From Eledone cirrhosa (Eukaryota), in the NCBI GenBank assembly GCA_964016885.1, contig OZ024742.1, positions 54,188,001-54,252,000 of the forward strand: DNA of 64,000 nt, read 5' to 3'. The notes under the pieces were generated by a model. It worked only from the letters and a program-made list of their open reading frames with translations. It had not been told where the DNA came from and did not search any database. The stretch's first letter is position 1, and each line of letters starts with the position of its first letter. This document shows positions 4,074-63,712 of the stretch, one piece after another. The translations under genes were made by a program, and so were the position numbers.

Positions 4074-4287
4074 GAATGCCATGGTTGACGGAGGCTCGGC
4101 TCTGTAAGGTATTGTAAATTTTAACCGCTATAACAATTGTAAATTGTTTAAAACTTTAACCAAATTGTAGACAAAAACACCCTTGTCCTCGTGATCGGGG
4201 TCTTTCTGCCCGTTATTTGGTCCTTCGGGGTTAAATAACCGCTTATTGGGGTTTTGTGCCCAATATTTATTTTAAACAAAAAAAAAC

Positions 4288-6408: not shown

Positions 6409-6442
6409 GTGGTCTTTCCCATCTTTTCCACTCCATTTCAAC

Positions 6443-9864: not shown

Positions 9865-9928
9865 ATTAAAGTTGGAAAACTGGGAGAGGGCACTTACTTT
9901 ATGTAAACCCTTGTGGTTAATAAAGAAA

Positions 9929-9963
<35 letters not shown>

Positions 9964-14077: not shown

Positions 14078-14078
<1 letters not shown>
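9964..14078 (+). mobile_element. Tx1/L1-clade LINE copy B (ORF1 type B; RT domain deleted at ~12850)
   Basis: ORF1 ~10181-12152 (knuckle CVVCGEGTHLKAFC); ORF2 12187-13834 jumps from the end of APE directly to the post-RT region. Confidence 0.92.
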
Positions 14079-14129
<51 letters not shown>

Positions 14130-17100
14130 GGCGACCTACGTAGTAAATCGTATCATCGTGAGCTCCGCAAAGGTTTGTTGTTTTCAGTTGTTTAAAATTG
14201 CCATTTATTGAAAATTTTATTGTTAACTGTATATAAGTGCACATACATTGTTTTCCGAAAAGGACACTCAAAAAGATAGGGGCCTTGAGCCCTAAATTTA
14301 AACTTTTATAATTATCAAAGAAAAATTTATTTGAAAGAAATCATGGATGACTCACAGTCACACCTTCCTCACAAACTAACACCTCAAACCGACACCACCA
14401 TTGTAAATATTACTACGTTTGCCAACAGTAAAAATATAAGCAGTAGCAATATTTTAAATTTGTCTCAGGCAGACATTCATTTCCCGCCATTACCAATGAC
14501 TGAACTTGTTAAAGCCGCCACCTCCACCACCACCACAGCGACAACAGAAACAAAAGAAAAAATAAATTAACTCGTGATATCGAAATGAATTCAACCAAAA
14601 TGAACTCTTCGACACCGAACACCACTGACCCCACCACCACACAACTGAAACTAAAATTAACAATAACAAAAATAACGATAACAACAACAGCAACAATGAA
14701 ATTAAGAAAACCACCCTGAGTATTGCTAGAGTAGCAAAACAGTGCGAAGCATTTCAGGTAACTCAGGAGGAATTAGAAGCCAAAAAAATGGTAAAGAAAG
14801 ATGGGTAGAGTGTCAGCCTCACCCCCACCCCCATCCCACCTAATAAAATGGAGCATCGGCGCCTATGTACCGTGTCTTATCGAACAATTAACATAAAATC
14901 GCGCCTAGTGGAACGGGCATCCGAGTCGCAAATCCAAAAAGCTTTGGGACATGTGTGGGCAAAAAAAACCCACATCAGACGTGGGCAGAAATATGGAACC
15001 GTGGACGTGTTCTTTGAAACACCACAGGAGGCTAGAGAACACTCCATGGCCCCTTTAAGAAGTGACGACTTCACACTCGTCACAAGCTATTGTGGCCAGA
15101 GGCTTGTAAAGATCAGGGTGACCCACGTTCCACCGGCCATCGAAATTCCCTTGCTAATAGCTGCCGTCCTCGCCGGCATCGAAGCCAACACCAAGATAAT
15201 CGAAATAGCGAAAGAAAAGCAGGAGAACTGGTCCGGATCTGGGATGGAGCTCCTGATCCAAGCGGACCAAAAAAGCATTGAGGAGATCCCAGAGGTAATA
15301 GACCTATCTGACGGCAGCCACCTCACCGTAATCGTCGAGGGCAGAAGGTCTAGATGTGTCGTTTGTGGTGAAGGAACCCACCTAAGGGCTTTCTGCCCTC
15401 AGGCTAAAAGGTTCGGGCCAACTCTCTTACCTACCCCAGTGACTCAACCATCAACACCACCAGCAGCAGAGATGGCAGCAACAACTGTACCAGCAACAAC
15501 AGAAGCAACTGTAACAGCAATAACCCCAGCAACAGTAGCAATCCAACACCACCACCACCCAACGCGCCAGAACTAGCACCAGCGCCTACACCATCCACCA
15601 CGCCACAACCAAAACCAACGCCTGTGGAGGATTTTCAACTCCCCGGCCTATCACAACTGGAGACAGATTGTGACGACGAGGAGTGGGAAACGGTATCAGG
15701 AAAAAAGAAAAAAAGAAACCAAAAAAGAAAAACATTCTCTTCCCTCCCCCTCCAAAAACAAAATACAGAGGGAAACAAATAAACTATCAAACAAAAAAGT
15801 TAGGACAGATATGCCACCATCCACACCAGCATCACCAACCCCATCATCACAAACACCAATACCATCACCATCATCACAAACACCACCATCACCAACACCA
15901 CAAAAGTCACCAAAAAGCGAAACAGAAACAAACCGACAACAAACGCAAACAAAACAAAACAACCAAAACGATACACACTACACAGCATTAAATTTGAACA
16001 ACAACCAATTATTACACTACATCCAACACAACACCAGCATCACAGAAAAAGACTATACAACAACCCAACAAGTTCACCCCACCTCCACACATACAAATCA
16101 CTCGCATCACACAGAAGACGTACACGACACTAAAACAAATATTCCCCAAAGACATCGGAGAATTCCGACAAACACTCTCCAGGAGGATTTATAAGGACAT
16201 CCTGCTGAGGAGGCCACAAGCAGTGAAAAGGATGGACAAACCATCCTTCCTCTACGAGAAGTAAGGTAAGTGGTCTTTCCCCTCTTTTCCACTCCATTTC
16301 AACATGACCTCACTCAGAATAGGCAGCATAAATGCGCGTGGCTTGGGGTTATCATGGAAGCAGGGCCACCTGTTCAACGACCTCAGGTCACTAAACATAG
16401 ATGTAGTGGCCATCAGCGAGACAAGAATCTCCGAAGCACGGGCCTTTGCATCGATCTTCAGCGGCTACGATGTGTAGGCATCTCCCAGCCGTCCTGGATC
16501 GGGGGGAGGAGTTGCTGTGCTTTTTCGGAGAGGTTTGGATCTCGACATACGGGCCATCTTCCTGGACCCAGAAGGTAAGTTGGTGGTGCTAGACGTGACC
16601 AGCGGAGACGGGCAAGCTTTCAGGCTAGTGGCCGTCTATGCCCCGACAGGTGCAGGGCGGCCTGATTTCTTCCGGCGTCTGGAGACCTTTCTGTTAGTGG
16701 ACGACTGGAACGGGATCTTAAATGCACGCTGGGACTGTGTGGGATCAGCGGATAGGGGAGGAGGGCGCAAGAGCTTCGCCAACCTGCTCGGGCGTTTTGA
16801 ACTGTCTGACAGGTACCGATTGCATTTCCCGAATGTGCCAATGTGGACTTGGACAAATCGCATAGGGTCATCCAGATCATATCTAGATAGAGTATTTTGT
16901 AGGGAAATAGATAGGTCTAGCATAGGCTGTCCACAATTCAAAACAGTCAGCTACACGGATCACAAATTCGTGATCTGTGTGCTTGACTTAGATAGGCTTC
17001 ATAGACGAGGACCCGGCTACTGGAAGCTAAACGCGTCCTTACAGCGCGCAAGGCCTACAGAGACCGGATTAGCGAACTAGTTAAGCGGGCGTTGACGGGG

Positions 17101-19898
17101 GCCATCGTCAACAACAAGTGGTGGTTTGCTCTGAAAAGAGCAATTAGAATAGAGTCCAATAGGTTTAGTAAGGCTTTAGCAATAGAGAAAAATAGAGCAG
17201 AGGGAGAATTAGTTAGAAAATTAGACGAGGCGCTTAGCAAAGGCATCGCGACCGACGTGCTTGCGGCGAAATTGGCCCTTGACCATTTCTTCAATGTAAA
17301 GCACGAAGGCTGCGTTGTCAATGGGCCCGAGTGGCGGAGGCGCGTCATGGCAACAAAGCCACGATCCGATCATTGGTGGACCACAACGGGCGCATGCTAC
17401 TCGATCCCGGGCAAATGTGTGAAGCTTTTCAGCGATACTTCGCACAGCTGTTCGGGGGCAGCGGCGGGCCGGATCGAGGGATGGACTTTAGTGTCTACCT
17501 CGACGGACTGCCGAGGCTCTCGGCCACTGAGGCGGAGTGTTGCGAAAAGCCGATAACAGCAGCTGTAATACGGTAGGCAATGACTGGCTGCACAAGGGGT
17601 AAATCGCCTGGTTTGGATGGTCTGCCCTATGAACTTGACGTACAGATGCCAGACTTGTTCGGAGGTCTCTTGGCGGACGTCTACTGCAAATGGCAACAGA
17701 ACGGAAGAATTCCCAGCTCTGTGAGCCGAGGTGCTGTGGCGCTGCTGAGAAAGGATCCGAACAAGGGGGATAACATAGATAATTTCAGGCCCATAACCCT
17801 GCTAAACACAGAGTTCAAGATTTTGGCCAAGGTGCTAGCAAAGAGTTTGGCGCTTGTTGTTGGTGGTCTGGTGGGAGAGGCGCAGACGTGCGCCATTCCC
17901 CAGATCCATCCACAACAACCTCCACCTCATGCGATACATCGTAGTGAGGGTAGCTTGGGAACCTGGCATGGGTGGGTCCTTGATCAATTTAGATTAGTCG
18001 AAAGCTTTCGATAGGGTCGACCATCGTTACCTAGCGGCAGTCCTGAGGGCGGCTGGCTTTTGACCCATCTTCAGAGGCTGGATCGCTGCCATGCACAGCG
18101 ACATCTGCTCTGTGGTGAGAGTGAACGGTCACCTTTCGGAACCGTTCAACATCATGCGTTCGGTCCGTCAAGGATGTCCCCTCTCGTCCCTCTTGTACGT
18201 ATTGACTCTCGAGGCATTACTGCACAGACTGGAGACGTTGAGGGGCGTGCCACGCGAACTAGGATGCGGAAGATCTGTGTCAGCATATGCGGACGATGTC
18301 ACCGTAGTGGAGTCGAACGCCAAACACATCGAGGCGATCGGCACTACTCTACTGGAATACGAGGCGGTGACAGGAGCAATGATCAACCAGGAAAGGTCAG
18401 AGGGCCTGCAGTTCGGCACCTGGAGAGGCAGGTCCATGTCGTCCAACAGCGTCGTCGGGCGCTGGACGGACGGACCGGTTAAATTGCTCGGGGTCTGGTT
18501 CGGTCCGGACCATCAGACGAACAAAAACTGGGACGAGGTGACGATTAGTGTGGCTTCTCTCACCCAGAAATGGGCGGAGAGGAAGCTATCCCTGAAAGGC
18601 TGAGCTGAGGTGGTAATGCGTACATCGCGTCCGTCATCTACTACCGCCTAACCGTCGTACCTTGTCCTAAGCCCAGCCTGACTGCGCTGGGGCGTTTGCC
18701 CTTTCGCTTTTTGTGGAAGGCACGCGCTCCGATGGTCAGGCGGTCCATCAGCTGTCAACACCCACTGCGTGGAGCGCTGGGTATGCCGTGGCTGATGATG
18801 CGCAGACACACGATCAGGCTACGACATCTCCACCTCTTCATCGACGGTGATCAGGTGTGGTCGCCGTTTGCTCGACACGTCTTTCCCCAGCTCGTCTCCT
18901 TGACGGAGCTGAAGTCCTGGGTCAAGCGAAGACCGAGAGGGAGCGCTTGGAGATTGGAATGTCTTCAGGCGCTCACAGCGCTCGACCAATCGGGCAATGT
19001 GATCGGTGGAAACTCTACCTTGGCGTTCTATAGAGGATTAGTGGAGAGAAAGAGCGACGACGTACTTGGGGAAACTCTAGGCGTCGACGAAAATCAACTA
19101 CCCAATCTCTTCGGAAGTAATTTCGAGCCGGGGCCTATGGACAACTTCCAGAAATCCCTGGCCTGGCAGTGCTACCGAGGAGCTTTGCCAGTTGGGGATA
19201 AACTCTACAGGCATGTAGGTGCCGTCAGCCGGGCATGTCCGAGATGCGCGCAGGGTGACGAAACCGTCCTGCACGCACTCGTCCAGTGTCCGAGCATTGC
19301 TGACTTGTGGGTTTATGTCGAACACCTGCTGTCACGTGTAGGACGGATCCAGCTATCAGCTGAGTTCATCGTGAGGATTGCCCCGCCCTCTTCCTTTAGC
19401 CGGGAAGGGCAGGCAGTTTTTATCTGTCTGGTGGCCATGGCGAAAGAGATAGTATGGTGGACACGTTTGAAAGGGCTGAAGACAAGCACTTACCTCTTCA
19501 GTGATGCCCTGATTAACTTTTTCAAATTTCATTTGAAAAGGAAAATCAGGGTAGGGAGGGAAGTGCTCTCTTCCCAGCATTTTGTTGAAAGATGGGTGAG
19601 AGAAGCAAGTATGGTCCTAGTGAATGGGCCTACTCTGAGTATGTGTCTGTAAATTAAAGGTTGAAAAGTGGGAGAGGGCACTTGCCCTGGTAGTCAGGGT
19701 CACTGTGTCCTTTTAATGGGCTTTCTCCACAAATGTCCCTCGGAAATATCCCCCCTATTGGGGAATTTTTCATTGTTATTTTTATTACATCCTCTGTTTT
19801 TTTTTACACGCAGAAATGCCCATTTGTAACGTCCTGTATTGTCCTGTACTGTCCTTAATGTCTACTTTATGTAAACCCTTGTGGTTAATAAATAAAGC
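14130..19898 (+). mobile_element. Tx1/L1-clade LINE copy C (near full length, ORF1 type B)
   Basis: ORF1 14343-16269 and ORF2 16304-19652, both disrupted; same 5' start (GGCGACCT) as copy B; AATAAA + (ATT)n end. Confidence 0.92.
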
Positions 19899-19916: not shown

Positions 19917-20106
19917 AAAGGGCGGTAGATTGACAGTATCGGTAGAGGGTCGGACGCCATGCTTTGACGCATAGAGTTACGCCTCTTGCCATTCTGAGTT
20001 CAAATTCCGCCGACGTTATCTTTGCCTTTCATCCTTACGGGGTCGATAAAATAAAGTACCAGTTATACACTGGATAATTACTCGCCTTTTGCGAAAAGTA
20101 GAAACA
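19917..20106 (+). mobile_element. tRNA-derived SINE with conserved core GCCTTTCATCCTTACGGGGTCGATAAAATAAAGTACCAG
   Basis: B-box-like GAGTTCAAATTC; homologous copies on the minus strand at ~48113-48290 and ~52336-52445. Confidence 0.85.
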
Positions 20107-20588: not shown

Positions 20589-21074
20589 GATACATACATA
20601 TATAAACATACAGATATATATGTGTGTGTATGTAATGTATATATAGTAATGTAAAAGCATATGATTTCGTCTATAGATTATATTGAAAGTGTGTGAAAGA
20701 GGGATGAGAGAGTGAGTGACAGAGAGAGAAAGTATGAATTACAAATTTACCTTGAAGTCAAGTTCATAATGTAACGATTGCTACTTTCGTTCAGATTTCT
20801 GGGAGATTAGCAAAACTATACATTTTCAAAAACTTTAGGACATACTTAATCCAAAAACCAATGTTGCCATGTTTTTCAAGGTGTCTGTGGTGGCCATCTT
20901 GGAATTTGAAAATGGTGACAACCGATAACCTTTTTCAACCGAATCTCAAATTCTAACCAACTGGGCTTCTAATTAGTGGCTAATTTAACATAATAACAAT
21001 AATAATAATGATAAAAATAATAATAATCAAATGCCATATAATTACTTCATTAGTGTTTATAATTTTTCAGACCA

Positions 21075-24000
21075 ATGAACAATATGGCCACAGCAACGTT
21101 ACCACGATTTGGTAGACAGCAACAAGAGACAATTGATTGGAAACCATGTATTTTGTGCCTACAAGATGCAGGCCAGTTTGTGTTACAACCAAAATTATAT
21201 TCATACCATAGTTTGTTAGCTGTAGTGATGGAGCGAGCATTACTGCATGATGGCGAATTTGTCAAAATTCAAAAGAGGCTAGAAGACTGCACAACAGAAA
21301 CTTTGCAAAGAAATAAGGCTTTTTGGCATCGCACGTGCTACTCCAACGCCACAAGTAAAGTCAAAATGCAATGTGCAAGAGGCCATCACCAACGGTCTTT
21401 GTCTAGTAGATCACATATCCGCAGAAAGCGAGGACGCCCTTCAAGCATTGACAGGAGTGAGCGATCAACCTCTGCCGCAATCTTAGGGCCGTTTACACGG
21501 TCAGCAACAAACCCACTGGAAAATGATTTGTGCTTTTTTTTGTCAAACGTTTGGTGACCAACAGCTGTTTGCAGTAAGAACTGCCAATGCGGGCCAAGCT
21601 CTAAAAAAGCTGTGGAAATCTCTCCTAATCCAGAACTAAAAACAAGAATGGCATCTTGCATCTTCGAAGGGGATGCTGACGCTGTTGATATCATTAAATA
21701 TCATAAACAGTGCTGGACAAGAAATGTGTTCCATGTTCTGAGAGATAAAGCTATTGCAAACAAAGCAAACAAAGAGAGTGGGTGTCAACAGCAAACAGCT
21801 AGTTTCCTTGAATTAGTGAACATTATCGACGTGCAAACTACAGATGGCGCATATCTTTGCATGGCAGACATCGAGAATACCTATTTGAACATGCTAGGTG
21901 GAGCAGAGGCTTTGCCAAATCACAGACCTGTCTATACCAGACAATGGCTGAAAGACAAAATATTAACAGAATTACCAGGTGTAAGGTCTGTTCTGCAAAG
22001 CAATAGGCGAAAGTCAGCTGTGTTGTATTACCCTGTGAGGTTAAAATGGTTCACTCTGCCATCACTTCTGATGAGACGGACAACATGAAGAATCTCTATA
22101 GGTCAGCACAGCTTGTTCGCCACAGCATTGAACATTTTACCAAAAGACAACCGCAACAACGTTCAATCCCAGTTTCCAGCAAAATAGAAGATGTGCCAGT
22201 GGAACTCTATACACTTATTCGCTGGATCATGGCAGGGCCTGCAAATGAACTGGAGACTGAAGTTCGAACACATGCTGTGGACAGAGCTGCCCTTACAATG
22301 AGTCAAAATCTGATGTTTGGATTCAAGTCTAAGAGAAAAGTCACATACGAGCCCAAAACTGAGCATGCTGGCTTTCGCTCGCAGCTTGTTAGAGAAAATC
22401 CCCAAGTTGTGGGATTGGCGCTGAGCATCCATCAAAAGACAATAAATAAGATGCTCGTTAATCTCCTCAACGCCCAATATTACTGTGTTACATACAGCCG
22501 TATGCTAATGATGGAAACAGCCGTTGTCAATGCTGTAGTGGAGAACACCAAACAGTTCCAAGGGCTGTATGTGCCACCATTCCTCAAGAAAGGCACTTTT
22601 GTCTTTTTCGCAGTAGACAATGCGGATTTCACTGAGGACACTCCAGATGGTAAAGGTACCACCCATGGAACTATCACTTCATCTTGAAGCCACTGAAAAG
22701 AACAATCTCAATCACAACAGGAGGGTTGCGGTGGTAGATGGAATGGTGCTTATTGAGAAGCTCACTAAAAAACCTGCTACCATGGTTACAGTGAGAGATC
22801 TAAGCCAAAGTTTTTATGAAAGACTGATGAATCTCACGCAGAACTTTGACGAAATAATTCTCGTGTTTGACACATATAAGACCGATTCCTTGAAGAATGC
22901 AACCAGGCAGAAGAGACGCCAAGGGAAGGATCTAGTCCAGTATCAAGTCAGAGATGAGACGAGCATCAAGCACATAACCATGAGCAGATTCCTATCACAT
23001 GAAAAGACGAAGGCTGATTTGACCAAGTACTTAGTAGAAAAGACTCTGTACTACAACAAATATTCCTCGAAGCTTGTCATCACTTCAGCATCTGACCAAA
23101 CCATGAGCAACAAATATTTGGAACCTTTCAGTGAAAACAACCACGAGGAAGCTGACACACTGATGATATGCCTTGCAGTATCTTCAACAAGGCGAAACCC
23201 AAGAGATATGCAATTAACTTTTTTCTCACCTGACAGAGATGTCCTGGTTCTGGTAATTGCCAACTATGATTTGTTACCTAGGCACACCTCCATCTCCATG
23301 GCATCAAGTGTTCTAAAAATCCAGCCATTCTGGGACGTTCTAGGTCCAACAAAGGCGAAGAATTTACATGCATTCCATGCCTCTCTGGCGCCGATAATAC
23401 GGGAAGGTTTGCTAGAGTAGGAAAGGCCACATGGTTCAAGATCTTCCTTGCAGCTGACGATAACACCATTGACAAAGCTGAAAAAGCTGTCTGATGACAC
23501 GGAAGTGACTGAAGAACTTATGTTATATATATATATATTTCTTTTTTTTTCTCTTTTTTTTTAACCACAAACATGTTTATTTAACTCTACTGGGATGAAA
23601 GAATGGTATTTAACTAATGTAATGGTACGCGATGGGGCCCATCCACAGCCCCGGCGGACATAATGGAGAAGGCGTTTCCCCGGAGGACGGCAAGGGAGAG
23701 GCGCTGAAAAAGCCACTCCAACTCGCGGGGATCACACCTACGGCTGGCCAGCTCAGCGCCTATGGTGGTGAGTAAGGAGGTAGCCCTGGGGCCGAGGACA
23801 CCAGAAGTTTCCACTGCCAGGGGAACGACCGCAAACATGTCGGAGAGCGACCGGTATTTGAGGAGTTTGTCCCCCTCAGCCCGACGTGCCGCAGAACCTG
23901 GGTCAGTCGCAGACTGCACCAGGTTGCGGCTTCAGAAAGTGTCGGTGCAGGTGGCATCCCAGACGAGGGGTTTGCCACCGCGGAATGGGAAGATGGCCAT

Positions 24001-25106
24001 GCTATCTGGCCTTTTGCCGTCCCCTCGATCCATCCCCACCGGCTCGAGCTGGGAAGGGAAGCCTGCAGCGTCCAAGCCATGCTTAATGACCTCGTTGAGG
24101 GCAGTATGGCGTGGAATGCGGCTGGCACTGTGGCGACAGGAAAGCGGGTGGAGGCCGAAAGAGTCCACGGTGGAACCGCAGCGACATTGGTGTGGCTGGC
24201 AGATCCAGAGGCCGAGCCTCAGGGAAACGCCGATTCGCAGGCTATGGTTGTCTAGCTGCGTGCCAGTGGAGAAGGAGGGCAGAGCATGGATCCAGGCACC
24301 ACTGTGGGATTTGGAGGCCGCACGAAAACAAGCAAGGTGGTGCTGGTCGAGCTGGCGCGTGAGCCTGTCTGAGGCCAGGCTGCACTGGATGGCATCCCAA
24401 GTGCGTTGGGGGGATTTGACGTCAACAGGGGGAGAAGGAGGAGGGACGTCTACTGGGCCAAGTCCCAGCCGGTCCCACGTCTCACAGGCGGCCTCACGTT
24501 CTCTGAACACAGAGGGTTCTGTTGTGTTTTGAAGAACCCTGCTGACGAGGACGCGACACGAGGTTACCGACGAAAGATACGCCAGCAAAGCTAGTGAGAT
24601 CGGGGATCGGAGGCCTAGGCCTAGGCCGCCATACCTGAAGAAATTCTGACCAGCTTGGAAAGTTTTGTGTGTCCTGCCTACAATCCAAAGGGAATCCAAA
24701 TCAAAAGCATTCCAGAGTTGCGATGGTACCTGTTCTGTAAATACATGTCAGAGAGTGACAAGTTACCACCTACAGTTGGTGCCCTCAAGCAGCACATCTT
24801 AAGGGTACATGTGCAAGCACGAGTTTGGGGCCAGGCAAGCACCCTCAAGCAAGTTCCGTTGGATCCAATGGAGATGATGGCCAACTAAAGCCAACCACTA
24901 CTGATGATCCTCCAGCACCTAAAACCATCATTGAGATTGTGAGATGCCAATGCAAGGGAGATTGTTCCTCATAAAGATGTTTCTGCAGGTCAAAGAATCT
25001 GCAGTGCACCGACCTTTGCCTGTGCACCACACAGTGTGAAAGTGACGCGGAAAGAGTTTATGAAAACCTTGACTCAGGTAATACTGATAGTGAGAGTGAT
25101 GACTGA
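21075..25106 (+). pseudogene. Academ-like transposase / XPG-like nuclease / Cys-rich finger ORF, frameshifted and split by the CRE insert
   Basis: ORF pieces 21075-21557, 21612-22088, 22046-22687, 22620-23420, 24655-24888; CQCKGDC..RCFCRSKNLQCTDLCLC at ~24945-25025. Confidence 0.75.
23517..24634 (-). mobile_element. 5'-truncated CRE-clade non-LTR retrotransposon
   Basis: GGLGL, SGAWIHALP, CRCG..HPLSC, RH, KRPD..WDAT..K..KY, PLAVETSG, RGNA; A-rich tail at ~23520-23565; TSD CTGAAGAA at 23509-23516 and 24635-24642. Confidence 0.88.
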
Positions 25107-32153: not shown

Positions 32154-32299
32154 ACATAGATATATACATACATTAATAACAATTTTATTTGTCTCCAATG
32201 CTTAGACATACATTTTATATATATATATATATATATAAAACTTATGTCTAAGCATTGGAGACAAATAACATTTTAATTAATGTATGTATATATCTATGT

Positions 32300-34054: not shown

Positions 34055-34630
34055 TATCAAATGAAACAACGGAGTTAAAGACTCGCGTTTATCTCTGTAA
34101 TTTAATGAAATCAAGGAATAATTACCGGATTCTTGATAATACAATATAGAGATGAGAAAACACGAAAGAAAATATTTTCAATTACAGGGGGTATTAGGAG
34201 TGAAAAACATAATAACTCCGAAAGGGATAGACGCGAGTCTTTAACTCAGTTGCTTCATTTGATATTTTAGCGCCAAACTAATTTCCTCGTTTGTTGCCAT
34301 TTCTAGCGGCTTTTTAATCCATTCATGCCACTAAGTACTGTTAGGCACGCGTATTTTCCTTCTCTCTTCACGTTAGTTTTCTAATGTCTATTTAGAAGTG
34401 TGGAACATATCTTCATTACACCTGCTGAAGACCCCTGGGTGGATATGATTCTTACACGGTTAATAGCGAAACATTCTCTATGAGCCTGTAAAGGTGGGTT
34501 TATGTAATATAATTCAACTCTTTAATTATAATGTATTTCCCATAGCTTTCGTAGTTTTTATGTGTTTCACACTAGTGGCCTTGTACCACCTGTAATTGAA
34601 AACATACTCTTGGTTGTTTTCGCCTCTCTA
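34055..34630 (+). mobile_element. Penelope-type pLTR fragments with hammerhead motif (34421-34494) and an inverted repeat (34055-34094 / 34226-34264)
   Basis: CTGAAGA..GAAAC..GTA; same family as 41416-41670. Confidence 0.65.
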
Positions 34631-35460
34631 CTTTGTATTATACACACACGCGCGTGCGCGCTTATATATATATATACATATAGTTCAAGGAAACAACATA
34701 ATAGAGGAACAAAAAGTCATATTATTTTCACGCTTCATATGGAAAAGCAGAAAGTTTATATACTTATACATATATACATATCCAGACACTCACACACACA
34801 AATATATATATATATATAGATATACATGGGCGAGGTATATATGCGTATATATGTGCATCCTGTGTGTGTATGTGTGCTTGCATACGCTTTTGTCTACACG
34901 TTTTTGCGTGTATATATATATATTTCTTATAGATATACGTTTCTTGTAGATAAATGTGTGTGTGTACGCGTGTACTTTGTTTGTCTTCTTTTCTTTATTT
35001 TTTTCTTTCTAAATTATTGTTTCTTTTTTATAGATATATCGAGAATGATACTTTCTTTTAATTATTACACTCCCTTACCTCATTTACTTCCGCATATAAG
35101 TGTACGTGCGTGTGGGTTGTTTATACGCGTGCCTTCATATTATAATGTATCTAATACCCTGTTTTTCTGTGTACCTGCCAAACAGACAATCACATCATGT
35201 CTGTCTATAGTTACAGATACACATACACTTGCCCTAACACATATATTTACGCACACTTTTTCACTATACGTACACATTTGTACATACACACATATGTACA
35301 TCTATGAGCATATATACATACATATACACACACCTAACTATATTTCTTGAAAGATTTTTATATATTTCATATGGCTATTGTAATTCCTTTGTCTATATTT
35401 ATATAATTTTTTTGCTTTTCTTGGTGAGACTTTCCAAGTATTTAGCCATGTTTTATATTG

Positions 35461-36392: not shown

Positions 36393-36799
36393 ATACGAGA
36401 GTAATCCCAAAAGTAAGGTCTCCAAAGCGATGGGGAGCAGAGACACTGTTCGTACGGCTGTTGGCAACACTGTTGTGATTGGTGCTTCCTTCACTCCCAA
36501 ACAAGCATGCGTGCGCTTCCCTGGGATGATCAATCTTGGTTTGACAGCCGTTGAGAATGGAGCTCCCATTGAACGCTAACCCCCCCCCCCCCCCAGTGCG
36601 AATTTCGCGCGGTTATTATATAGAGGGCAATCCCAAAAGTAAGGTCTCCTTCCGAGGAAAACATGCGTAAAGATCGGCGGATCACTCTGGATTCTCTCTG
36701 CATTTTGGTTCCTGAGGTTTCCTGAAGCTCCATCCACAGGAATTTAACGGAAAAGTTGCAATATCGGAAGGAGACCTTACTTTAGGGATTGCCCTCGTA
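36393..36799 (+). mobile_element. Mariner remnant: 5' end plus a nested ~180-bp mini-element (36620-36799)
   Basis: TIR GAGGGCAATCCCAAAAGTAAGGTCTCC at ~36396, ~36622 and inverted at ~36770-36797, TA flanks; transposase pieces MELPLN..CEFRAVI and KDRRITLDSL..SIHRNLTEKLQYRK. Confidence 0.85.
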
Positions 36800-36812: not shown

Positions 36813-36851
36813 CGGCGGCTGAGCTTCTGCGGTTTCAACAGCTAGATCCAT

Positions 36852-36920
<69 letters not shown>

Positions 36921-36990
36921 TATATATAGATATATATAGATATATATATCAGAATGGATCTAGCTGTTGAAACCGCAGAAACTAATCTGC
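36813..36990. repeat. Inverted repeat (~43-bp arms) around (TA)n, related to the 43451/63425 family
   Basis: TTCTGCGGTTTCAACAGCTAGATCCATTCTGA / TCAGAATGGATCTAGCTGTTGAAACCGCAGAA. Confidence 0.9.
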
Positions 36991-37687: not shown

Positions 37688-37692
<5 letters not shown>

Positions 37693-40600
37693 TTGTTATA
37701 ACTGATATAAAGCACTCAACAAGTATTTGGAGTAAACATACGATATTAACAAATGGAAACTATATTTATAAAACCATATTTATTTCATTATACATATTTC
37801 AAGGACACCAAGTTAAATTATGGTGTGCTTTCATCAGACAAAATATAATATAGATCAGTTTTATAAATAAATATTGACATACTCTTAAATCGGACCTTGG
37901 CAGATTTAGCAAAAATATTCTGGACAGAACAATATAGCAAGTTAAGAATTTATCTAATTTATCTTATTTAAAATTATGGAAGGGAACTAGTGAAGTTATC
38001 GATTGGTTTAAAGAAATTAAATATAACTACAATAATAAGTTTATTAAGTTGGATATTACTAACTATTACTCATCTATCACTCCTAATCTACTGAATAAGG
38101 CACTAACTTACGCATTTAAACATACATACATAACTAGCAATGAAATGCACATTATATTATCGGCACGGAAAACATTAATAGAATTTAATAACCAACTCTG
38201 GACTAGGGCAGATAGAAATAATAATTTCGACATAACTATGGGATCTTCCGATTCCGCTCAGGTAACGGATCTTGTGGGCCTATTTATAATTAATTCTCTA
38301 CATAGAAAAATATCTGAGATAACCGGAGGTTTAATCGTGACGACATGCTTTTACTTATAGAAAATAATAACTGTGAACTAAATAAAAAAAGAAAACAAAT
38401 CATACAATTTTTTAATTACCTTAATCTAAAAGTAGAAATAGAGAATAACCATAAAATAGTCAATTTTCTAGATGTAACACTAAATCTTAACACATGTCTT
38501 CATTATCCATTTCACAAACTAAATGAGAACTTAAATTACGTCAATTTTAACTGTAATCACCCCAGATCCGTTAAAAATACTATAGTGAACTCTGTAATAG
38601 AACGAATTTCGAGGTTTTCAGCTAATAAGAATATATTTGATGAAAAGCACATTATTACAACGAAGCGTTAGGTAGAGCTGGGTATAGAAATAAAATTAAA
38701 TACATCGATAATAATAATAATATAACAACTAACCATAATCGTAACAATTTTAACTATGGTAACAATTTTAACAACTATAATAGAAAACCTTACATTAATT
38801 CCGAAAGCCGAAAAAGAAATAGAACTAGGAACATATTATGGTTCGCTCCTCCTTTCTCATTAAATATTAAAACCCCTATTGCTAAATTATTTTTTAAAGC
38901 TCTTGACAAATGCTTCCCTAGAACACATAGATATTACTCAATTTTTAATAGACATACTATAAAATTAACTTATTCTTCCACGTAAAATTTAGCGCAAAAT
39001 ATTAATAGAATTAATAATAGAAATTTAAAACCTAACCAAAATACCAATAATAACCCAAGCAATATTCAATCTGATAAATGTAACTGTAGAAATAAATCTA
39101 ACTGTCCGTTAAATAACAATTGCTTAGCTAAAAATGTAGTATATAATTGTAATGTAAAAACTAATTTAAATTCATTTAATTATGTGGGATCTACTTCCAC
39201 AGAGTTTAAATCCCGCTTCAATAATCATAAACATTCTTTTACAGATCCAAACAAAAAATCTTCAACTTCTCTATCTAGCCTATTATGGGACCTAAAACTA
39301 AAGAACATTGAATATTCGTTGATTTGGAATATTATTTCAAAAGCCTTTTAACTCCCCTTCAGAAAATGGCGATCTTTGTATAGAGGAAATATTCTTTATA
39401 TTAAAGCCCCAAAATTCCCTGAACTTAAGGAATAATTTATTCAGTTGCTGCAGACATAGATTAAACTCAACGTTTAAATATAAATATAAATTTAAAATGT
39501 AGTATATAATTAATTAATTAATTTTATTAATATATGAAACCTGTCGATAAATCATTAGATTCCTTCATCTTTTTTGACTGATTATACACTCAAGTAAAAA
39601 TAACTTTTCTTCCTAAATATAAATAAATATAAATATAATAAACTATTCTAGAGAAATATATTGAGAGCTCTTGAAAGGAGAAAATATTTCCTATTTCTTA
39701 TTTTTTTATTTTTTTATTTTTTTATTGTTTTCTTATTGTTCTGATAGCTTCTCCTATTTTCGAATGTTTATCCTTTCAAAATTTTGAGTTAAATATACGT
39801 AAGATAAATTTCTATACTAAATCTATTAAACATACTATTATTTTGAAATTATAACTTAAAATATTCTATAATATTTTAAAATTGTATTGCTTTTAAAGTT
39901 ATATTGCTTATAATTATATTTCCAAATTGTAATATAATCCTTTTGTATTTTATGTACTCAATTATACTATGTACTGTATTGATATATACTTCTCTCTATA
40001 TGTGAGTATATATGTATATGTGTGTATTGACATTCATGTACATATGTTCTATGCGTTTTTATGAATGTATGTCTGCCTGTATGTATATGTATGCATGATG
40101 CGTATCTACCTATTGCCTGAGGGTACACACACATGTATATATATGTATATGTGAGAATTGTGTATATGCATGTGCGTGTATATCCATACAATTTGATTGC
40201 ACTTATGTATAGTGATTATCCCAATGTTTCCTCACAGATAGACATATAATTAACAGCCATAAATACATAACAGGTAATCTTATAAAACTTATATAAAAAT
40301 TTGTTTAATAACATAAAGTGTGTATAACATAAAATTTCCTTTAATATCTTAACAATTATAACATTTTAAAGATTCCTATATCTTAAATGAAATTAAAGAA
40401 TCCTTTATGCTTTGTGTGTATATATTATATACGTAGTTAGATATGTTATGTATTTTATAAGTGTGTATATATATTTATATGTATTTTTGCGTGTGTATAC
40501 GTGTTATATGATATGTAGTTCTCTAGCAATATATGGATTTCTTAATGTATAGATCCCAATTTTTAATATATTGATCTCAATTTTTAAATGATTAAATAAA

Positions 40601-41093
40601 CATCTCATCATATTTAAACAATGATTAATTTCTCATATTATATACGTATATTCCATTCATGATTATTAACATTTCTAATTTTATTTATTCATTTCATCTC
40701 AATTGTTAAGTTAACTCAACGAGATATGACTTAGAGTTTTCGTTCTCTCCCCTTCTCTCTGTCTCCCCTCTCTCTATATATCTTTCTCTCTCTGTTGTCT
40801 CTCTCTCTCTCTTTTTTCTCTCTCCTTCTTTTTCTCTCTCTGTAACCCAACGGCTTATTTTAAAAATAAAAAATATCCAATACTAATAATAATGTAAGTA
40901 AACAACTCCACTATCCGGGAGCTTCCAACAGTAATGGTTGCATTTTTTAAGGGTATGTCAATATTTATTTATAAAACTGATCTATATTATATTTTGTCTG
41001 ATGAAAGCACACCATAATTTAACTTGGTGTCCTTGAAATATGTATAATGAAATAAATATGGTTTTACAAATATAGTTTCCATTTGTTAATATC

Positions 41094-41097
<4 letters not shown>
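37688..41097 (+). mobile_element. Penelope-like element (RT + GIY-YIG) with inverted pLTR at the 5' end, flanked by (TA)n
   Basis: DITNYYSSI, FDITMGS.D.A, DD, VNFLDVTLNL, CNCRNKSNCPLNNNC, VVY..YVGSTSTEFKSRFNNH (coding ~37880-39480); 37738-37886 is the reverse complement of ~40948-41097; CTGATGA..GAAA at 40998-41038. Confidence 0.9.
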
Positions 41098-41157
<60 letters not shown>

Positions 41158-41446
41158 GATACGTATATATATAGATATAGATATATATATATTGATAAAT
41201 GGACAGATAGATATGAATACTAGACCACCCGTTCACTTTTAAATATTTAAAAAAATCATGTTCACTTAAAAAGAATATTTAAATACACAGATAGGTATAT
41301 AATGTAAAATGAAATGGGAAGGCCAATATATATGTGCGTGTATTTATGTGTATATATATATATAAGTGTATATGTGTGTGTACACATACATATGTATGTC
41401 AGTTAACTGATATTTATTTAGAAGTATGGGACATATCTTCTTTACA

Positions 41447-41520
41447 CCTGCTGAAGAATCCTGAGACGATATGATTCTTACACTGTTTATTGTGAAACAT
41501 TCTCTCTGAGTCTGTACAGG
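41447..41520 (+). ncRNA. Hammerhead ribozyme motif in pLTR fragment 41416-41670
   Basis: Stem I CCTG/CAGG, CTGAAGA, GAAAC..GTA. Confidence 0.7.
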
Positions 41521-41924
41521 TATTTTCATAGTTATAGAGTTGGGTTATGCATTTTAATTCATCTCTTTAATTATAATGTATTTCCCACACATTTCGTAGT
41601 TTTTATGTTTTCCCTCTAGTGGCCTTATACCACCTGTAATTGAAAACATACTCTTGGTTGTTTTATCCTCTCTCTCTCTCTCACACACACACTCATGCTT
41701 ACGCACGTGCTCAAGTATAGCTCTTTTTACAAAACGGTCTTTTTTCCATTTCAGGTAGACGCGCATCATCATCCACTTTTCTAAAAAACAAATCATACAC
41801 AAAACGCCAGCACCAACAGTTTTGCAAGAGATGTCAATATGAATAGACCTGTTATTTTTATCTAAAGGCATTTTTTCCAATTCAATCCCCTCCGTGCCCT
41901 CAATCTATTTTATTTCTCATTATT

Positions 41925-43450: not shown

Positions 43451-43632
43451 ATAGGAACGAGTAGGACCCCGACGGCTGAGCTCAAGCCGTTTCGACGGCT
43501 AATTAGCCGTCGAAACGGCTTGAGCTCAGCCGTCGGGGTTCTACTCGTTCCTATTACCCACTCTACTACCCTAAGTATTGAGTACTTTGGTGCGTTATGG
43601 TCCACCTGGTTCCTTACCACATTTCCTTCGTT
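43451..43632 (+). mobile_element. Fold-back mini-insert: 104-bp palindrome (one mismatch) + ~78-bp tail
   Basis: Centre AA|TT at 43502/43503; contains the hammerhead 3' half GAAA-CGGCT-tgagctc-AGCCG-TC; family copy at 63425-63626. Confidence 0.85.
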
Positions 43633-43635
43633 ATA

Positions 43636-43978
<343 letters not shown>

Positions 43979-44183
43979 AAAGATGAGTATTGCCGTACAT
44001 GGGAGTCGAACCCACATCTTTGGTTATCCAGATGTGGATAACCAAAGATGTGGGTTCGACTCCCATGTACGAGAACACTCATCTTTTTCCATTTCTCCGA
44101 GGGTTATAAACCCCACTATCAGGCTAGAAATTTCTTTAGTCTAAAATACAGTGAAAGCTTATAATTTCTAATTTCTAATTTTT
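43979..44183 (+). mobile_element. Fold-back mini-insert carrying a tRNA T-arm/B-box (52-bp arms + ~95-bp tail)
   Basis: Arms 43979-44030 / 44035-44086; GTGGG-TTCGACT-CCCAT at 44050-44066; (TA)n on both sides. Confidence 0.75.
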
Positions 44184-44325
44184 ATATATATATATATATA
44201 TACGTGACGTATTCTATTCTATAGCGATTAGGTCTTCAAAATGTTTATTATAAACATACAGAATATTTTCGAATATTCTATGTCTATATTCACATATATA
44301 TCGCTATTTCAGAGCATTTATTCCA

Positions 44326-45695: not shown

Positions 45696-45700
<5 letters not shown>

Positions 45701-47922
45701 AAGATGAATATAAAATGAAAGTGCTTTTATAAAGGAATTTATTAGGTATTGACATATGTTTCTGTAACAGACGGAATACCTATGTATCGCTGCTTGCGTA
45801 ATCATATAATGTTAGCAAGTATTCGATAGCAAATGTATAATCAGTTGTCACTTCTTCAGAGATTTTGGATAAATTGGAAAAAATCAGAAAAATTGAAGTA
45901 TTTATATTAGTTGTAAGAAAGGAAGATATGTGGACTCCACCGTGACGATGCGCTCCTATTAGTTAAGCATATGAATAACCAGAATTTAGAAAGGATGCGT
46001 AAAAATATTAGAAAGCTTTTTAAGGAACTAGGATTAAATATTACATTTGAATATAACCTCAAAGTGGTTAATTTCCTTGATGTCACTTTGAATCTCAATA
46101 CAGAAACGATTAAACCGTTCCATAAACTAAATGAGAACCATAAATATGTAAATACAGGTTCTAACCATCCACCCTCTATAATTAAATCCATCCCTAGAAT
46201 CTCCCGCCTGTCGTCCAACCAGCAAACCTTCAAAGAACATGCTGAATATTATGATGATGCACTTAGGAAGGCTGGGCACCTAGATAATGTAGAGTATATA
46301 GTCGACGATCACCAAAACACCCAAAATAAATCTCATAGAGGTAGAATCACCACCATTCATACACTACCGCAATAGACACATTAATAGTCGCACACCACCA
46401 AACAGAAGGCGATGTAAAGAGTATATGTGGTACAACCCGGTCTATAACAACTCTATTAAAACCAATCTATCCTCACATATCTTTCGATTAGTTAAACAAC
46501 ACTTTCAAACATCACATAAATATAATAAAATCTTAAAACACTATTCGACTTTTATATTCAACCGCCCCTAATATTGAACAACATATAAAAAAGCTTAACG
46601 CAAAACGGTTGTATAAACGCCTTCCAACACATAACAATACACGTAAAACATCGGCTATAACATCACAAAACAACAAACAACATCTCGTCCTGCCTAAGCA
46701 ACCACATCAACCCATCCATGCGAATACAACAACGCAAAATTATAACTGTAACTGTGTCCAACCAGGAATGTGTCCGTTGAACAATCAGTATCTTGAACGC
46801 AACATCATATACAAATGTACTATCGAATCGGGTAGCCAGAAGTGGTACTATGTGGGGTCTACAGCTACCTCCTTCAAATCTCGCCTTTATAGACATCGTT
46901 ACTCGATAAAACATGAAAACCAGCGTTATGTAAGTACACTCGCAGACAAGGCTTGGCAGCTGCGCGAAAATAACCAACGATTTAATCTAAAATGGGATAT
47001 AATAGCACTGCCCCTGCATATTTCCGAGGGCAGAAATTTTGTAAATTGTGTTATATGGAATTATTTTGTATTATGAAATCCAAAAATATTTTATTAAATA
47101 ACAGAATAGAGCGATCGTTATACTGTAACCATTGCTTGAAATCTATATTTTCATATTACAAACGCTACCAGGATTGAACCCCTGTCTCCATCTCCGTTTG
47201 ATTGTCAAAATACAAATTAACATTCTCTATTAGTCTTAATTCTATCAACTCTTCTATTCTTTACCATTTAATATAAACTGCTATAGATAAAATGAGATTT
47301 CTTAATTCAATTCCCTAATGCATATACCAGCAGGCTACCAGCATTGTTGTTATACCGTAGCAGTGAAAATCCCCCTCCTCCTTAATTGACACTTTATATC
47401 TATTAATACTACTACACCAAACGACCAGCCCTGTCCATTGTTCAATTGGTCAAGTATAGATTAAAATAGACACTCCCAAAAATTCTTATTTAGATAAAAT
47501 AAGCCAAATACTCATTGTATTCTCATTAGAAAGCTTCTATATACTTGTTTACCAGTAAATTGAATTGCCATTTGTCATATACTATCCCCTCTTTTCTTCC
47601 TTTCTTACAACTAATATAAATACTTCAATTTTTCTGATTTTTTCCAATTTATCCAATATCTCTGAAGAAGTGACAGCTGATTATACATTTGCTATCGAAT
47701 ACTTGCTAACATTATATGATTACGCAAGCAGCGATACATAGGTATTCCGTCTGTTACAGAAAAATATGTCAATACCTAATAAACTCCTTTATAACAGCAC
47801 TTTCATTTTATATTCAACTTTTCTACATTTTCTCCGGAATATAATTTATACTCGTTGAGCAAACCTACACGTACGCTGTTCATCTCTAACGTGACGATAT
47901 ATTATCACTACATTATTGATAA

Positions 47923-47926
<4 letters not shown>
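45696..47926 (+). mobile_element. 5'-truncated Penelope-like element with ~230-bp inverted pLTR and ~100-bp tail, flanked by (TA)n
   Basis: GLHRDD, VNFLDVTLNL, CNC..CPL, IIY..YVGSTATSFKSRLYRH; 45696-45926 is the inverse of ~47595-47825; CTGAAGA 47662 ... GAAA(C)ATATGTC. Confidence 0.9.
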
Positions 47927-48112: not shown

Positions 48113-48290
48113 ATTGTTTCTACTTTAGACACAAGGTCAGCAATTACCCAGTACATTACTGGTACTTTATTTTATCGACCCCGTAAGGATGAAAGGCCAA
48201 GTTAACCTGGGCGGGATTTGAACTCAGACTGTAAAGGGACGTAACTATGCTAGAAAGCATGGCGTCCAACCCTCTACCGATACTTCCAAG
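48113..48290 (-). mobile_element. tRNA-derived SINE (same family as 19917)
   Basis: CTGGTACTTTATTTTATCGACCCCGTAAGGATGAAAGGC core and inverse B-box. Confidence 0.85.
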
Positions 48291-48299
48291 GTAATAATA

Positions 48300-49740
48300 A
48301 CCCTAGGACGGCCACTACCAACTCCACTAGAACCCCTAGAAGGAATAGACCTAGAAATATCACCTGGCTTAACCCCCCATCCTCGTCTAATCTAGCCACT
48401 AATATCCCTAAACGCTTCTTCTCTATCCTATCTATACATTTCCTCCCGAACCATAGATATTACAAACTCTTTAATAAAAATAACACTAAAATCTCATTCT
48501 CCGAAACACCTAACCTAGCTAGCCACATCGCATTCAGTAACCATCATAAACCAAGACAGTATAACTCCCACACCGCTTTACCACCACCCCTATCGAATAC
48601 ACCACGCCACCACACCAATAATTACTCTAGTAGCACACCTCCCCCATCTAATCCTTCTAGCACTGACCAACCGCTTAGGTTAAAATACCCTACTCTCACT
48701 AACCGCAGAAGCAACTGCAACTGCCGTTACCCTAATGCATGCCCATTAAATGGACACTGCCTGACACCCAACATATTCTATAGGTGCACGGTTAAAACTG
48801 CTTCGAATACCAGCTCTTATATCGAGTCTACCTCTAACCCTTTTAAGGTACGCTATAACGCACACTCTTTTTCCTTCCGAGACCCTAGCAACAGATGTTC
48901 GACATCTCTAGCTAGGCTCATTAAAAACCTTAACTTAAGCAACATTGAACACTCACTAAAATGGGATATCGTAGCTAGAGCCCAACCCTTCAATGGACGA
49001 AGAAAATCTTGTGATCTCTGTATTACAGAAGCATTTTCCTTAACTCTATCACGACCTCTATCGATTAACGATAGAACGGAGGTAACTATTAGCTGTCAAC
49101 ATCGAAGGGCTAATTCCTTCGCCAATAGAATATTTGACCCAACATAGTCATCTAGCCCCATTTTCACTTGTAGCAAATAAGTTAAATAGCTATAACTAAC
49201 TTAGATAATTTTAAGTTACCTCCCCTACATTGTCTCTCAATTAAAAAAATTCAAAAATTAGCACTTAACTATAAACTACCCACAATTTCTAATCTCTTGA
49301 GGAGTTACTTCCCCTGAAACCACCCTCTAATTAGTAAGGTAAATATGTCATTTGGCGGCCATCTTGTTACCAATAGGCAGATCTCACACAATGCAGCCTC
49401 GACAGATGAATACTGCTTGATTATGGCTGACAACTGATACAACCAGGACACCATAGCGAAACACTACATTATGTAACATCCGCTCCTTATTTTAATTTAT
49501 ATTCCTTTGAAGTTCCGATGAGCCGCTCTGTTTTTAAATATGTTAATTATTTTCAACTGAACCAGATCAATAATGATATATAGTCATCTGATCCAGAAAT
49601 ATTATATGGAGTAGTGAAACAATTGTAAACGGACATTATTATTATTAATATTATTATTATTCTCTACATTCCTTACATCAAACTAAAATATGCTGACAAT
49701 CTTTTAATAATGTCTTCCTTATGAAATTTGTGGCCTTGTT
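48300..49740 (+). mobile_element. Decayed Penelope-like 3' fragment (GIY-YIG) with pLTR hammerhead motif at 49512-49630
   Basis: CNCRYPNACPLNGHC, IFY..YIESTSNPFKVRYNAH, CDLCITE; GTT-CCGATGA...GAAACAATTGTA-AAC. Confidence 0.8.
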
Positions 49741-49934
49741 TTGCTTAACCAATGAATATTTCCAGCTCTGTGCGCCTAACTTCTGCATGAACCCAGCCAC
49801 CTAGCTGCTTTCTACTGCATATTGCACATTGAGCACATGCCTTTACGCTTTGGCTTCTAACTAATTCACCAATCTCTCCTCTCATAACTCGTCTCCTATC
49901 TCCATCTCTCTCTTTAAGATTGGTTACTCTTGAA

Positions 49935-50025
<91 letters not shown>

Positions 50026-51713: not shown

Positions 51714-52983
51714 TAGGTCGTTATACAGAGAGTGATACAAGATAATCAGATAGAGAGACAGAGAGAGAGAGAGAATGGCGACGAACGCTGGTTCACACAC
51801 ACATACACACACAAACACATATATATATATATATATAAAGAGAGAGAGAGATCTGCGCGTTCTTTATTGTACTCCATTCTGTAGAGGAAGAGAGAGAGAG
51901 GGGGTATGAGTGAGAGAGAGAAAGAAAGAGAGAGAGAGAAGGTCCGAGAAAAAGGGAGAGAGGTTGAGAAAGAAAGAAAGTTTAAGCAAAGAATCGTTGC
52001 CTTCAACATTAACGGGATCTTCTTAAACTAAAAAATTCAATCCGTGAATGCAAAATTAAATATTTCGAGAAACGTTGCAACTGAAGGAAAACAGGAAGAC
52101 GATATTTTGGTTCGTAAAGACGTTCCCTGGCAATGAACAGAAAAAAAGTGAGGATAATACGTCGTTATGTGGACCTAGAAAAACAATTTCATGCAAAGAC
52201 AAGACCAAGTTTATGGTGTAAATGGAGTCGTTAGACTAATATTCTATTTAAAATAACCGAATGATTTCCAGCCCCGGAGTTTAAGAATGATGTAAATAAA
52301 ATTGTAAACGAAAATGACAGAGGTTATTAAAATAGTTGTTTCTATTTTTGGCACAAGGCCAGCAATTATCCAGTACATTACTGGTACTTTATTTTATCGA
52401 CCCGTAAGGATGAAAGGCAAAGTTAAACTCGACGGGATTTTAACTTTGCTTTAAAATAGTAAAAGTAAATAGTGAAGATTTAGGCCTGTACATACGTATG
52501 CGCCGACGGACATACATATACATACACAGAAACACACACACAGGCGCGCGCGCGCGCACGTGTGTGTGTAGACCTTATGCATTTCTACAGTATTTTCACC
52601 AAACTTAAGACATAGGTTACTTATGTACTCCGGATGGTCATGGGCACTTTCATTTTTCCAGATATTGATTATAGGGCCTCCCTTTAACCACTTCCCTGGA
52701 GTCGACTGAAGCACTGCAGCGCAATGCAACAACACGTCATAACTTCTGGCGTTCGCAACCGATTTTCACAAAACTTGACACATGGGCTACGTTTGTTCTA
52801 CAGATGAATGTGAACTCTCAGAATTGGTACATATTGAGTAGGGGAACCCTGGGGGCAGGAACCCCCTTTTGGGAAAAGCCGATGATTTTGTAAAAGTATA
52901 GTTTTCGAAGCAGAACTGAAGTATTGACATAAATGGTATACATAACTATTTAATACCCGAGCAACGCTGGGTACCTCTTCTAG
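50806..52983 (+). mobile_element. Non-autonomous Helitron with internal microsatellites and a SINE fragment (52336-52445)
   Basis: A|TC start, (GTCT)n, 3' hairpin TACCCGAGC-AAC-GCTGGGTA, then CTAG|T. Confidence 0.78.

Positions 52984-56799: not shown

Positions 56800-57386
<587 letters not shown>

Positions 57387-63322: not shown

Positions 63323-63712
<390 letters not shown>

Follow-up and report, generated by a model that had tools for sequence, protein, structure and literature searches.

The stretch of DNA that we analysed (the window) covers 64,000 nucleotides of a contig from Eledone cirrhosa and contains a small fold-back insert at 43979-44086. The insert has zero loop and consists of two 54-bp arms that are identical at 50 of 54 positions. 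The left, inverted arm (43979-44032, minus strand) is a 5'-truncated copy that holds tRNA positions 31-73 plus a trailer, and the right, forward arm (44033-44086, plus strand) pairs with it. The four arm mismatches lie at right-arm positions 44034, 44072, 44073 and 44076, and the majority letters of the family described below are nearer to the left arm than to the right. The outer end of the left arm corresponds to 44086 and thus falls within the equivalent of a T-run. As RNA, the insert folds at -86 kcal/mol (z -19), and none of 200 shuffles was equally stable. A one-sided tail of 96 nt follows on the right side only (44087-44182, plus strand; seen for this copy only). This copy, the only one of its family whose flanks were seen, has (TA)n on both sides: the left target (43938-43978) reads (TA)18 and then GTGT and is common to the adjoining hammerhead-bearing insert N2, and the right target (44183-44202) is (TA)10.

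The tail contains a mini-hairpin (44101-44113, plus strand) with a 5-bp stem and a 3-nt loop, and among the 40 of 79 difference rows listed the differences within the family fall in the loop only (44106 and 44108), with none in the stem. Read from the sequence, the tail is free of ATG, and this copy has no poly(A), no LINE-type repeat tail (the TA target aside) and no TSD. Neither a scan for CTGA.GA...GAAA nor Rfam finds a hammerhead core in 43979-44183, as the sequence-only reading of this locus had held. There is no ORF with RT and GIY-YIG in this insert copy, and a sequence scan of the window finds no second copy. An origin of the fold-back as an assembly artefact is unlikely because the arms differ at four sites and because contigs of X2, one of the public sequencing runs discussed below, cover the centre. 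One X2 contig has its junction at the insert's own centre, where it joins 44032 to 44035 at a depth of 4.8, and a second contig crosses that centre with different letters; X2 is possibly the window's own source.

Penelope-like elements and other repeats in the window

Three ORF remnants of Hydra-clade Penelope-like elements (PLEs) lie within 7 kb of the insert, and the ORFs of two of them, PLE1 and PLE2, are broken. PLE1 (37689-41097, plus strand) is a Hydra-type remnant with an inverted hammerhead pLTR (98.7% over 152 bp), a one-sided tail of about 50 nt and (TA)n at both ends. PLE2 (45698-47924, plus strand) is a Hydra-type RT/GIY-YIG remnant with an inverted pLTR (45698-45926, 97.4% to 47595-47823), a one-sided tail of about 101 nt and again (TA)n at both ends. 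The pLTR of PLE2 keeps a degenerate hammerhead core only. The third remnant lies at 48254-49937. A CxCX5C linker stands ahead of the GIY-YIG motif in all three; in the available part of PMC8557442 this linker is diagnostic of Hydra and the Hydra clade targets (TA)n, and the RT pieces of PLE1 and PLE2 resemble, by eye, the Hydra rows of the alignment given there. Pfam applied to six ORF pieces returned one weak GIY-YIG match (E 0.007), and Atlas gave GIY-YIG for one ORF piece and was uninformative for another. We regard PLE2 as a candidate for the partner type of the insert family. Naiad was considered as a partner and rejected, as the ends and two short motifs in the accessible text of PMC8557442 are without a match (line wraps in that text may hide some) and the window ORFs are of the Hydra type with a C-terminal EN.

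Four smaller pLTR-type inserts (N1-N4), with arm lengths of 52-87 bp and tail lengths of 63-79 nt, sit between simple repeats. N1 (43451-43632, plus strand) holds only the 3' half of a hammerhead core and N2 (43748-43941, minus strand) has a core; both are pLTR-type fold-backs, with arms of 52 and 58 bp and tails of 77-78 nt. When the tRNA insert is included, the five tabulated inserts span arms of 52-87 bp and tails of 63-96 nt, with zero loop in four of the five. The likeness to neighbouring pLTR inserts that the sequence-only reading had noted, namely arms, a tail and (TA)n flanks, is thus borne out by the anatomy of N1-N4, PLE1 and PLE2. N1 (plus), N2 (minus) and the tRNA insert (plus) are three fold-back inserts of three families within one expanded (TA)n tract (43451-44202), which is a nested target hot spot with three inserts in 750 bp.

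Several other repeats in the window can be compared with these inserts. N1 and N4 (63425-63626) form one family at 87%, in which the outer arm end is alike and the fold points differ, and in a distant relative at 36825-36980 (region 36813-36980) a central (TA)n separates two copies that face each other head to head. Fold-backs that lie between (TA)n tracts and are hammerhead-free by scan occur at two more places (32167-32286 and 56952-57052). Every one of the 12 local inverted pairs is located past 32 kb; the first 26 kb, which are rich in LINEs, contain none, and 7 of the 11 pairs besides the tRNA insert overlap pieces with a hammerhead core (by eye). A SINE with three copies in the window (19957-20091, 48126-48262 and 52352-52445) served as a control, and none of the three folds back; we take it to be of tRNA type, like the octopus OR2/Meta-Deu type. 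A 174-bp piece with 33-bp terminal inverted repeats (36623-36796) presumably resembles a mariner-type MITE. The ORF remnants at 219-3300 (minus), 4276-19652 (plus), 21063-23420 (plus) and 23932-24747 (minus) are, we assume, broken non-LTR retrotransposons and other transposon-like remnants, and they would include several Tx1/L1-like copies in tandem and one non-LTR element on the minus strand.

A tRNA-like head in a multi-copy family

The 3' part of a tRNA-like head (44033-44074, plus strand) was placed by hand against the head found in the loose ends of other copies. All of its parts lie on the plus strand. In this copy the anticodon loop occupies 44035-44040, with 44035 as U33 and the triplet GGA at 44036-38. 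The 3' anticodon stem then leads to a variable loop of 4 nt (44046-49) and to a T-arm (44050-44066) of five pairs and a 7-nt loop, which contains the B box (44053-44063) and the A58 equivalent (44059). The 3' acceptor strand (44067-73) is followed by the discriminator A at 44074 and by a 9-nt trailer and T5 run (44075-44088), with the T5 at 44084-88 and then a C. The inverted arm begins inside this run. T5 followed by C may be a putative leaky Pol III terminator, and a T-run with a C context is said to favour read-through in mollusc SINEs in the portion of PMC4758252 at hand.

The canonical T-arm and the variable-loop-like segment before it, both noted in the sequence-only reading, were recovered in this way, and the T-arm lies above shuffle expectation. 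The window has two instances of a strict T-arm pattern, one in each arm, compared to an average of 0.12 over 60 shuffled windows, and when the 150-nt unit is shuffled 5,000 times the pattern appears in 5 cases. ARAGORN finds 0 tRNA genes in the window. The sole Rfam result for the insert is a T-arm match of 7.8 bits within the tRNA clan (tmRNA model, E 0.15), and for the window Rfam returns sub-threshold matches only, mostly to miRNA hairpins, among the 150 of 165 matches listed. Given the weak Rfam match, the tRNA origin rests on the other copies and not on this copy alone.

These other copies come from public sequencing runs. Seven of 13 runs, with four organism codes, contain words of the unit. 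Four of the 13 (X1, X2, X5 and X11) were compared with the unit at 80% likeness and gave 1,420 contigs in X2, 2,190 raw reads in X11 and, under two other organism codes, 7 contigs in X1 and 1 contig in X5, so that the matches span three organism codes and a single-copy sequence is ruled out. The commonest identity band is 90-95% in both X2 and X11. The listing of individual pieces covers 16 of 1,460. If the sampling of X11 were even and the genome about 2.8 Gb, the family would have about 2,800 copies; this is an order of magnitude only, as the RAD library is biased and the 2.8 Gb, which comes from a table in the accessible part of PMC13282606, possibly belongs to another species. A 21-mer of the unit has 0 matches in viral and metagenome contigs. 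Loci found by an 18-mer (29 + 11) were dropped as chance, since 0 of 40 extend and only 7-20 of 48 downstream letters are alike. The family may already be catalogued, for example among the octopus SINEs; Ohshima and Okada reportedly described OK, OR1 and OR2 from octopus in 1994.

What is visible of the unit comes to about 180 nt and a further 123 nt or more, and it is non-coding so far as seen. Contigs of X1, X2 and X5 run past 44181 with the same non-TA letters for up to 123 nt, and the full unit is therefore longer than this copy. A fall of the X11 depth after 44126-44132 was rejected as a biological boundary. The ends at 44132 and 44166 are AATT sites, the median loose lengths (53 and 93) are those of 150-nt reads anchored there (52 and 94), and the fall is a library effect at these sites.

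On the 5' side, where half of the tRNA is missing from this copy, the loose ends of other copies supply it. X11 reads run on 5' of 44035, 44036 and 44037 in 432, 164 and 121 cases among the 16 of 213 loose-end rows listed, and the 30 loose letters are nearly alike across the X11 head reads (agreement 0.86-0.94). In 40 X2 contigs and 2 X1 contigs the reverse complement of the head continues from the left arm at its inner end. About 39% of the anchored X11 reads (717, from the loose-end rows listed, of about 1,843) retain the head. At 44072, 44073 and 44076 the right arm of this copy departs from most reads.

We read the cloverleaf by hand, in tRNA numbering, from the loose ends in three runs and the majority letters of the family, and in these longer copies it closes with an A box and a B box, which gives the full tRNA head expected by the sequence-only reading. 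The acceptor stem has 7 of 7 pairs (four Watson-Crick, three G.U), the D-stem 4 of 4, the anticodon stem 4 of 5 and the T-stem 5 of 5. U8, A14, A15, G18, G19, A21, U33, U48 and the T-loop invariants are in place. The rough chance of such a cloverleaf is about 3e-8 when 100 registers are allowed for. The insert is thus multi-copy and tRNA-derived. A working eukaryotic tRNA has a purine at 37, a paired anticodon stem and an anticodon that fits its body, and a short variable loop is a misfit for the triplet GGA. The head has U at 37 (T at 44039), a G27.A43 mismatch and anticodon-loop letters that vary among copies, and by these rules it differs from a functional tRNA gene at position 37, in the anticodon stem and in the loop letters. 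The parent may have been a tRNA resembling those for Trp, Gln or Arg.

Other copies fold back as well and do so at variable points, in line with an expectation of the sequence-only reading. The geometry is inverted-then-forward in 11 of the 11 joints listed, and their positions are 44033, 44058-44065 and about 44068-44084. Five of the listed joints leave the left arm at the mirror positions 44064, 44061, 44058 and 44033 and skip to a forward copy, and six are strand switches between 44058 and 44084. Among them the forward copies mostly begin at about 44068-44074, and 1-4 letters fit both sides. These read-level joints come from one organism code and two studies, each with 4-11 reads or 1-2 contigs, and two junction types are common to X2 and X11. 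The deepest X2 joints (depth 286 and 151) are at 44058-44062; that these two reflect an RT stop at a methylated A58 is speculation. In 226 X11 reads and 39 X2 contigs the loose ends before 44077 blend inverted-arm letters (by eye; agreement 0.62 and 0.53). One joint (44029 plus 12 letters, to 44087) is without overlap and has the geometry of twin priming.

How the family may have been copied

Similarity between the insert tail and the 3' end of a PLE, which the sequence-only reading had proposed as a check, is at most weak. The 27 nt around the arm end match the arm end of PLE2 in 20 of 23 columns, with the register kept within 2-3 nt. This match is joint-best of 63,619 window positions (fraction 0.00017; 0.0004-0.0012 with wider windows), and its p value against shuffles is 0.005-0.014, or about 0.04-0.1 over eight anchors. 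The match was first spotted by eye and is T/C-rich, and the matching letters 44095, 44097 and 44098 are variable in the family. The other seven anchors were near background, except for the N3 tail, which matched out of register, and an unanchored version of the PLE2 comparison was null (p 0.57). A signal shared between the arm end of the insert and that of PLE2 is on this evidence suggestive only. In 24 unanchored comparisons of the insert tail with pLTR-type pieces none was significant after correction. The two best were N3 (p 0.03), which the majority letters of the family match less well than this copy does, and an AT-rich stretch at 31970 (p 0.05). When the insert tail was scanned against the whole window, no LINE 3' end was conspicuous.

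An 11-letter motif found in three neighbouring pLTR tails is absent from the insert tail. Its exact occurrences in the window number three, and all of them begin 21-28 nt inside the tail of a pLTR (43555-43632 in N1, 43748-43825 in N2 and 37689-37740 in PLE1); N4 and N3 have near versions of it. By eye it is also present in a Hydra 3' end published in PMC8557442, and the motif, which was defined after the tails had been viewed, could be a conserved Hydra tail signal. The continuation of the unit past 44181 shares a 10-mer with two window pLTRs (chance 899 of 20,000, 4.5%). These two (34390-34662 and 41420-41692) are hammerhead-bearing and related at 80%.

Our best explanation, to which we give a probability of about 0.65, is that PLE enzymes mobilise a non-autonomous element with a tRNA head, of which the insert is a dead copy truncated at the 5' end. 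Some form of PLE-type insertion is highly probable when this stand-alone element, a module inside a larger unit and the capture of a tRNA transcript in trans are taken together. The family was likely copied into (TA)n tracts by a Hydra-type PLE RT/GIY-YIG endonuclease, and judging from the head it is likely to be transcribed by Pol III. For the more specific reading, in which a Pol III tRNA-headed, SINE-like family parasitises the RT/endonuclease of a Hydra PLE and keeps a cloverleaf where PLEs keep a hammerhead, we see the odds as even. A point against the best explanation is that the T5 run directly behind the tRNA should, by its sequence, stop Pol III before the tail. The family is not filed as a strict SINE because LINE dependence is not shown, nor as a retrozyme because it is hammerhead-free.

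In PMC11167929 the two strands of AT-rich DNA are both nicked and extended by a purified PLE protein, which starts reverse transcription inside the RNA, with two start sites that bound the tail. In our model of the insert family the A and B boxes would drive transcription, and the RNAs would stop at the T5 run or read through it. A PLE protein would bind near the pyrimidine stretch and the mini-hairpin just behind the tRNA and nick both strands of the (TA)n target. The first nick would prime cDNA at about 44086, from an internal start or from the 3' end of a terminated RNA, and the second would prime cDNA from the tail; alternatively, the two 3' ends may stand for two RNA species, one terminated and one read-through. 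Both cDNAs would stall in the folded tRNA, be it at the acceptor edge, in the T-loop or, in this copy, in the anticodon loop, and would be joined head to head via microhomologies of 1-4 nt. The product would have the order (TA)n, inverted arm, forward arm, tail and (TA)n; the A box is gone from this copy.

Other explanations account for part of these data. The cloverleaf could belong inside a larger unit of PLE type, which would be the pLTR of an autonomous PLE or a retrozyme-like tandem unit of a few hundred bases. In such a unit the tRNA would take the place of the hammerhead and act as a promoter or mark where RNase P/Z cuts multimeric transcripts. Such a unit would suit the position of the tRNA just inside the arm end, like the hammerhead cores of N1-N4 and PLE1, the extension of at least 123 nt past 44181 with its 10-mer (899 of 20,000) common to two window pLTRs, and the full acceptor stem, which exceeds the needs of a promoter. 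However, the tail is without ATG, and neither the Naiad octopus ends nor the start and hammerhead region of Hydra-1_Obim, as given in the partial text of PMC8557442, have a match. In the joints listed the forward copies begin 1-6 nt inside the acceptor stem, upstream of the RNase Z cut, and stalling therefore appears to fit these starts better than cleavage. We find the larger unit unlikely. The proposal of a parasite of PLE RT made in the sequence-only reading is favoured in part by the copy number, the tRNA head and the PLE anatomy of the family, but the continuation past 44181 keeps the case for a larger PLE unit in consideration.

An ordinary LINE-dependent tRNA SINE is a poorer candidate still. 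The fold-backs would then be a minority accident of twin priming or of occasional PLE activity, and (TA)n would merely be a common target. The first 26 kb are full of LINE remnants, the joint at 44029 fits twin priming, and the roughly 39% of anchored X11 reads that keep the head imply many copies that are unfolded within it. This SINE explanation is opposed by the lack of a poly(A) or LINE-type repeat tail (the TA target aside), by the tail scan without a standout LINE 3' end, by the absence of fold-backs from the LINE remnants and from all three copies of the other SINE, and by the duplication of the whole arm. Twin priming on one RNA yields no full arm duplication. A further alternative holds that PLE enzymes acting in trans copied a true tRNA gene together with its trailer, terminator and flank, and that these retrocopies are not self-propagating; this seems to us the least probable of all. 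The trailer and T5 run are tRNA-gene-like, the inverted arm begins in the run, and PLEs are able to retrotranspose host RNAs in trans according to the available portion of PMC8557442. Yet U37, G27.A43, the variable loop letters and GGA with a short variable loop are unlike a working tRNA, and more than 200 nt shared downstream, together with the high abundance, are in keeping with the SINEBase criteria for a SINE (PMC3531059).

Relation to known elements

The insert family combines traits of systems that are otherwise described separately. SINEBase states in its accessible text that SINEs depend on LINE RT, and its tRNA-derived SINE2 group (PMC3531059) resembles the family in being short (<700 bp), non-coding and multi-copy with an A/B-box head and a downstream body. 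Unlike SINE2, the family has a PLE-type fold-back, a one-sided tail and a strong 5' truncation within the head, and a LINE partner or LINE-type tail was not seen in it. The Hydra and other EN+ PLE units, as far as the available parts of PMC8557442 and PMC11167929 describe them, share the adjacent inverted 5'-truncated copy, the one-sided tail, the (TA)n target and the lack of a visible TSD. The insert differs from them in having a tRNA cloverleaf for the hammerhead, no ORF seen and no copy of the tail motif of the three pLTRs. Its tail is 96 nt long, whereas the accessible part of PMC8557442 gives 30-40 nt for PLEs and the PLE tails in the window are 50-101 nt.

The nearest precedents by analogy appear to be the schistosome repeats with a Pol III promoter and a hammerhead, which come closest, followed by retrozymes and TRIMp3 elements. 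Sm-alpha and Sj-alpha likewise have a Pol III promoter on a short repeat and possible PLE-type RNA motifs, but they carry a hammerhead and are tandem, and fold-backs and a PLE partner are unstated in the available text of PMC6765202. Animal non-LTR retrozymes (PMC7229834; 10.64898/2026.07.22.740005) are also short, non-coding and proposed users of PLEs. They differ in their type I hammerheads, their tandem arrangement and their derivation from pLTRs, and the accessible portions of these two sources make no mention of a tRNA head. The TRIMp3 elements Helenus, Ajax and Cassandra (PMC10886601, in part) have a Pol III promoter derived from a small RNA and are non-autonomous and LINE-independent; they rely instead on the machinery of LTR retrotransposons (PBS, PPT and TSD) and reportedly do not keep the tRNA fold. 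A tRNA-headed, hammerhead-free parasite of PLEs was not found in the full-text literature covered, which leaves out most subscription papers, Repbase and Dfam. The family resembles a SINE in its head and a PLE in the way it inserts, with the partner PLE a candidate only.

If the preferred reading of a tRNA-headed element moved by PLE enzymes is true, these enzymes act on a small RNA in trans. Non-autonomous elements that are driven by Pol III have been described for LTR retrotransposons (PMC10886601), and the family would be the PLE counterpart of these TRIMp3 elements and of the LINE-dependent SINEs, perhaps as a recurring class in invertebrates. Its junctions would then map the start and stall points of PLE RT on a structured RNA, and the insert would offer a minimal natural template, open to assay in vitro, for the open question of how PLEs form their inverted copy and tail. 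Families of this type could also explain some unclassified short repeats; in a recent octopus annotation the insertions of recent activity include 893 SINE families that are unclassified (PMC13282606).
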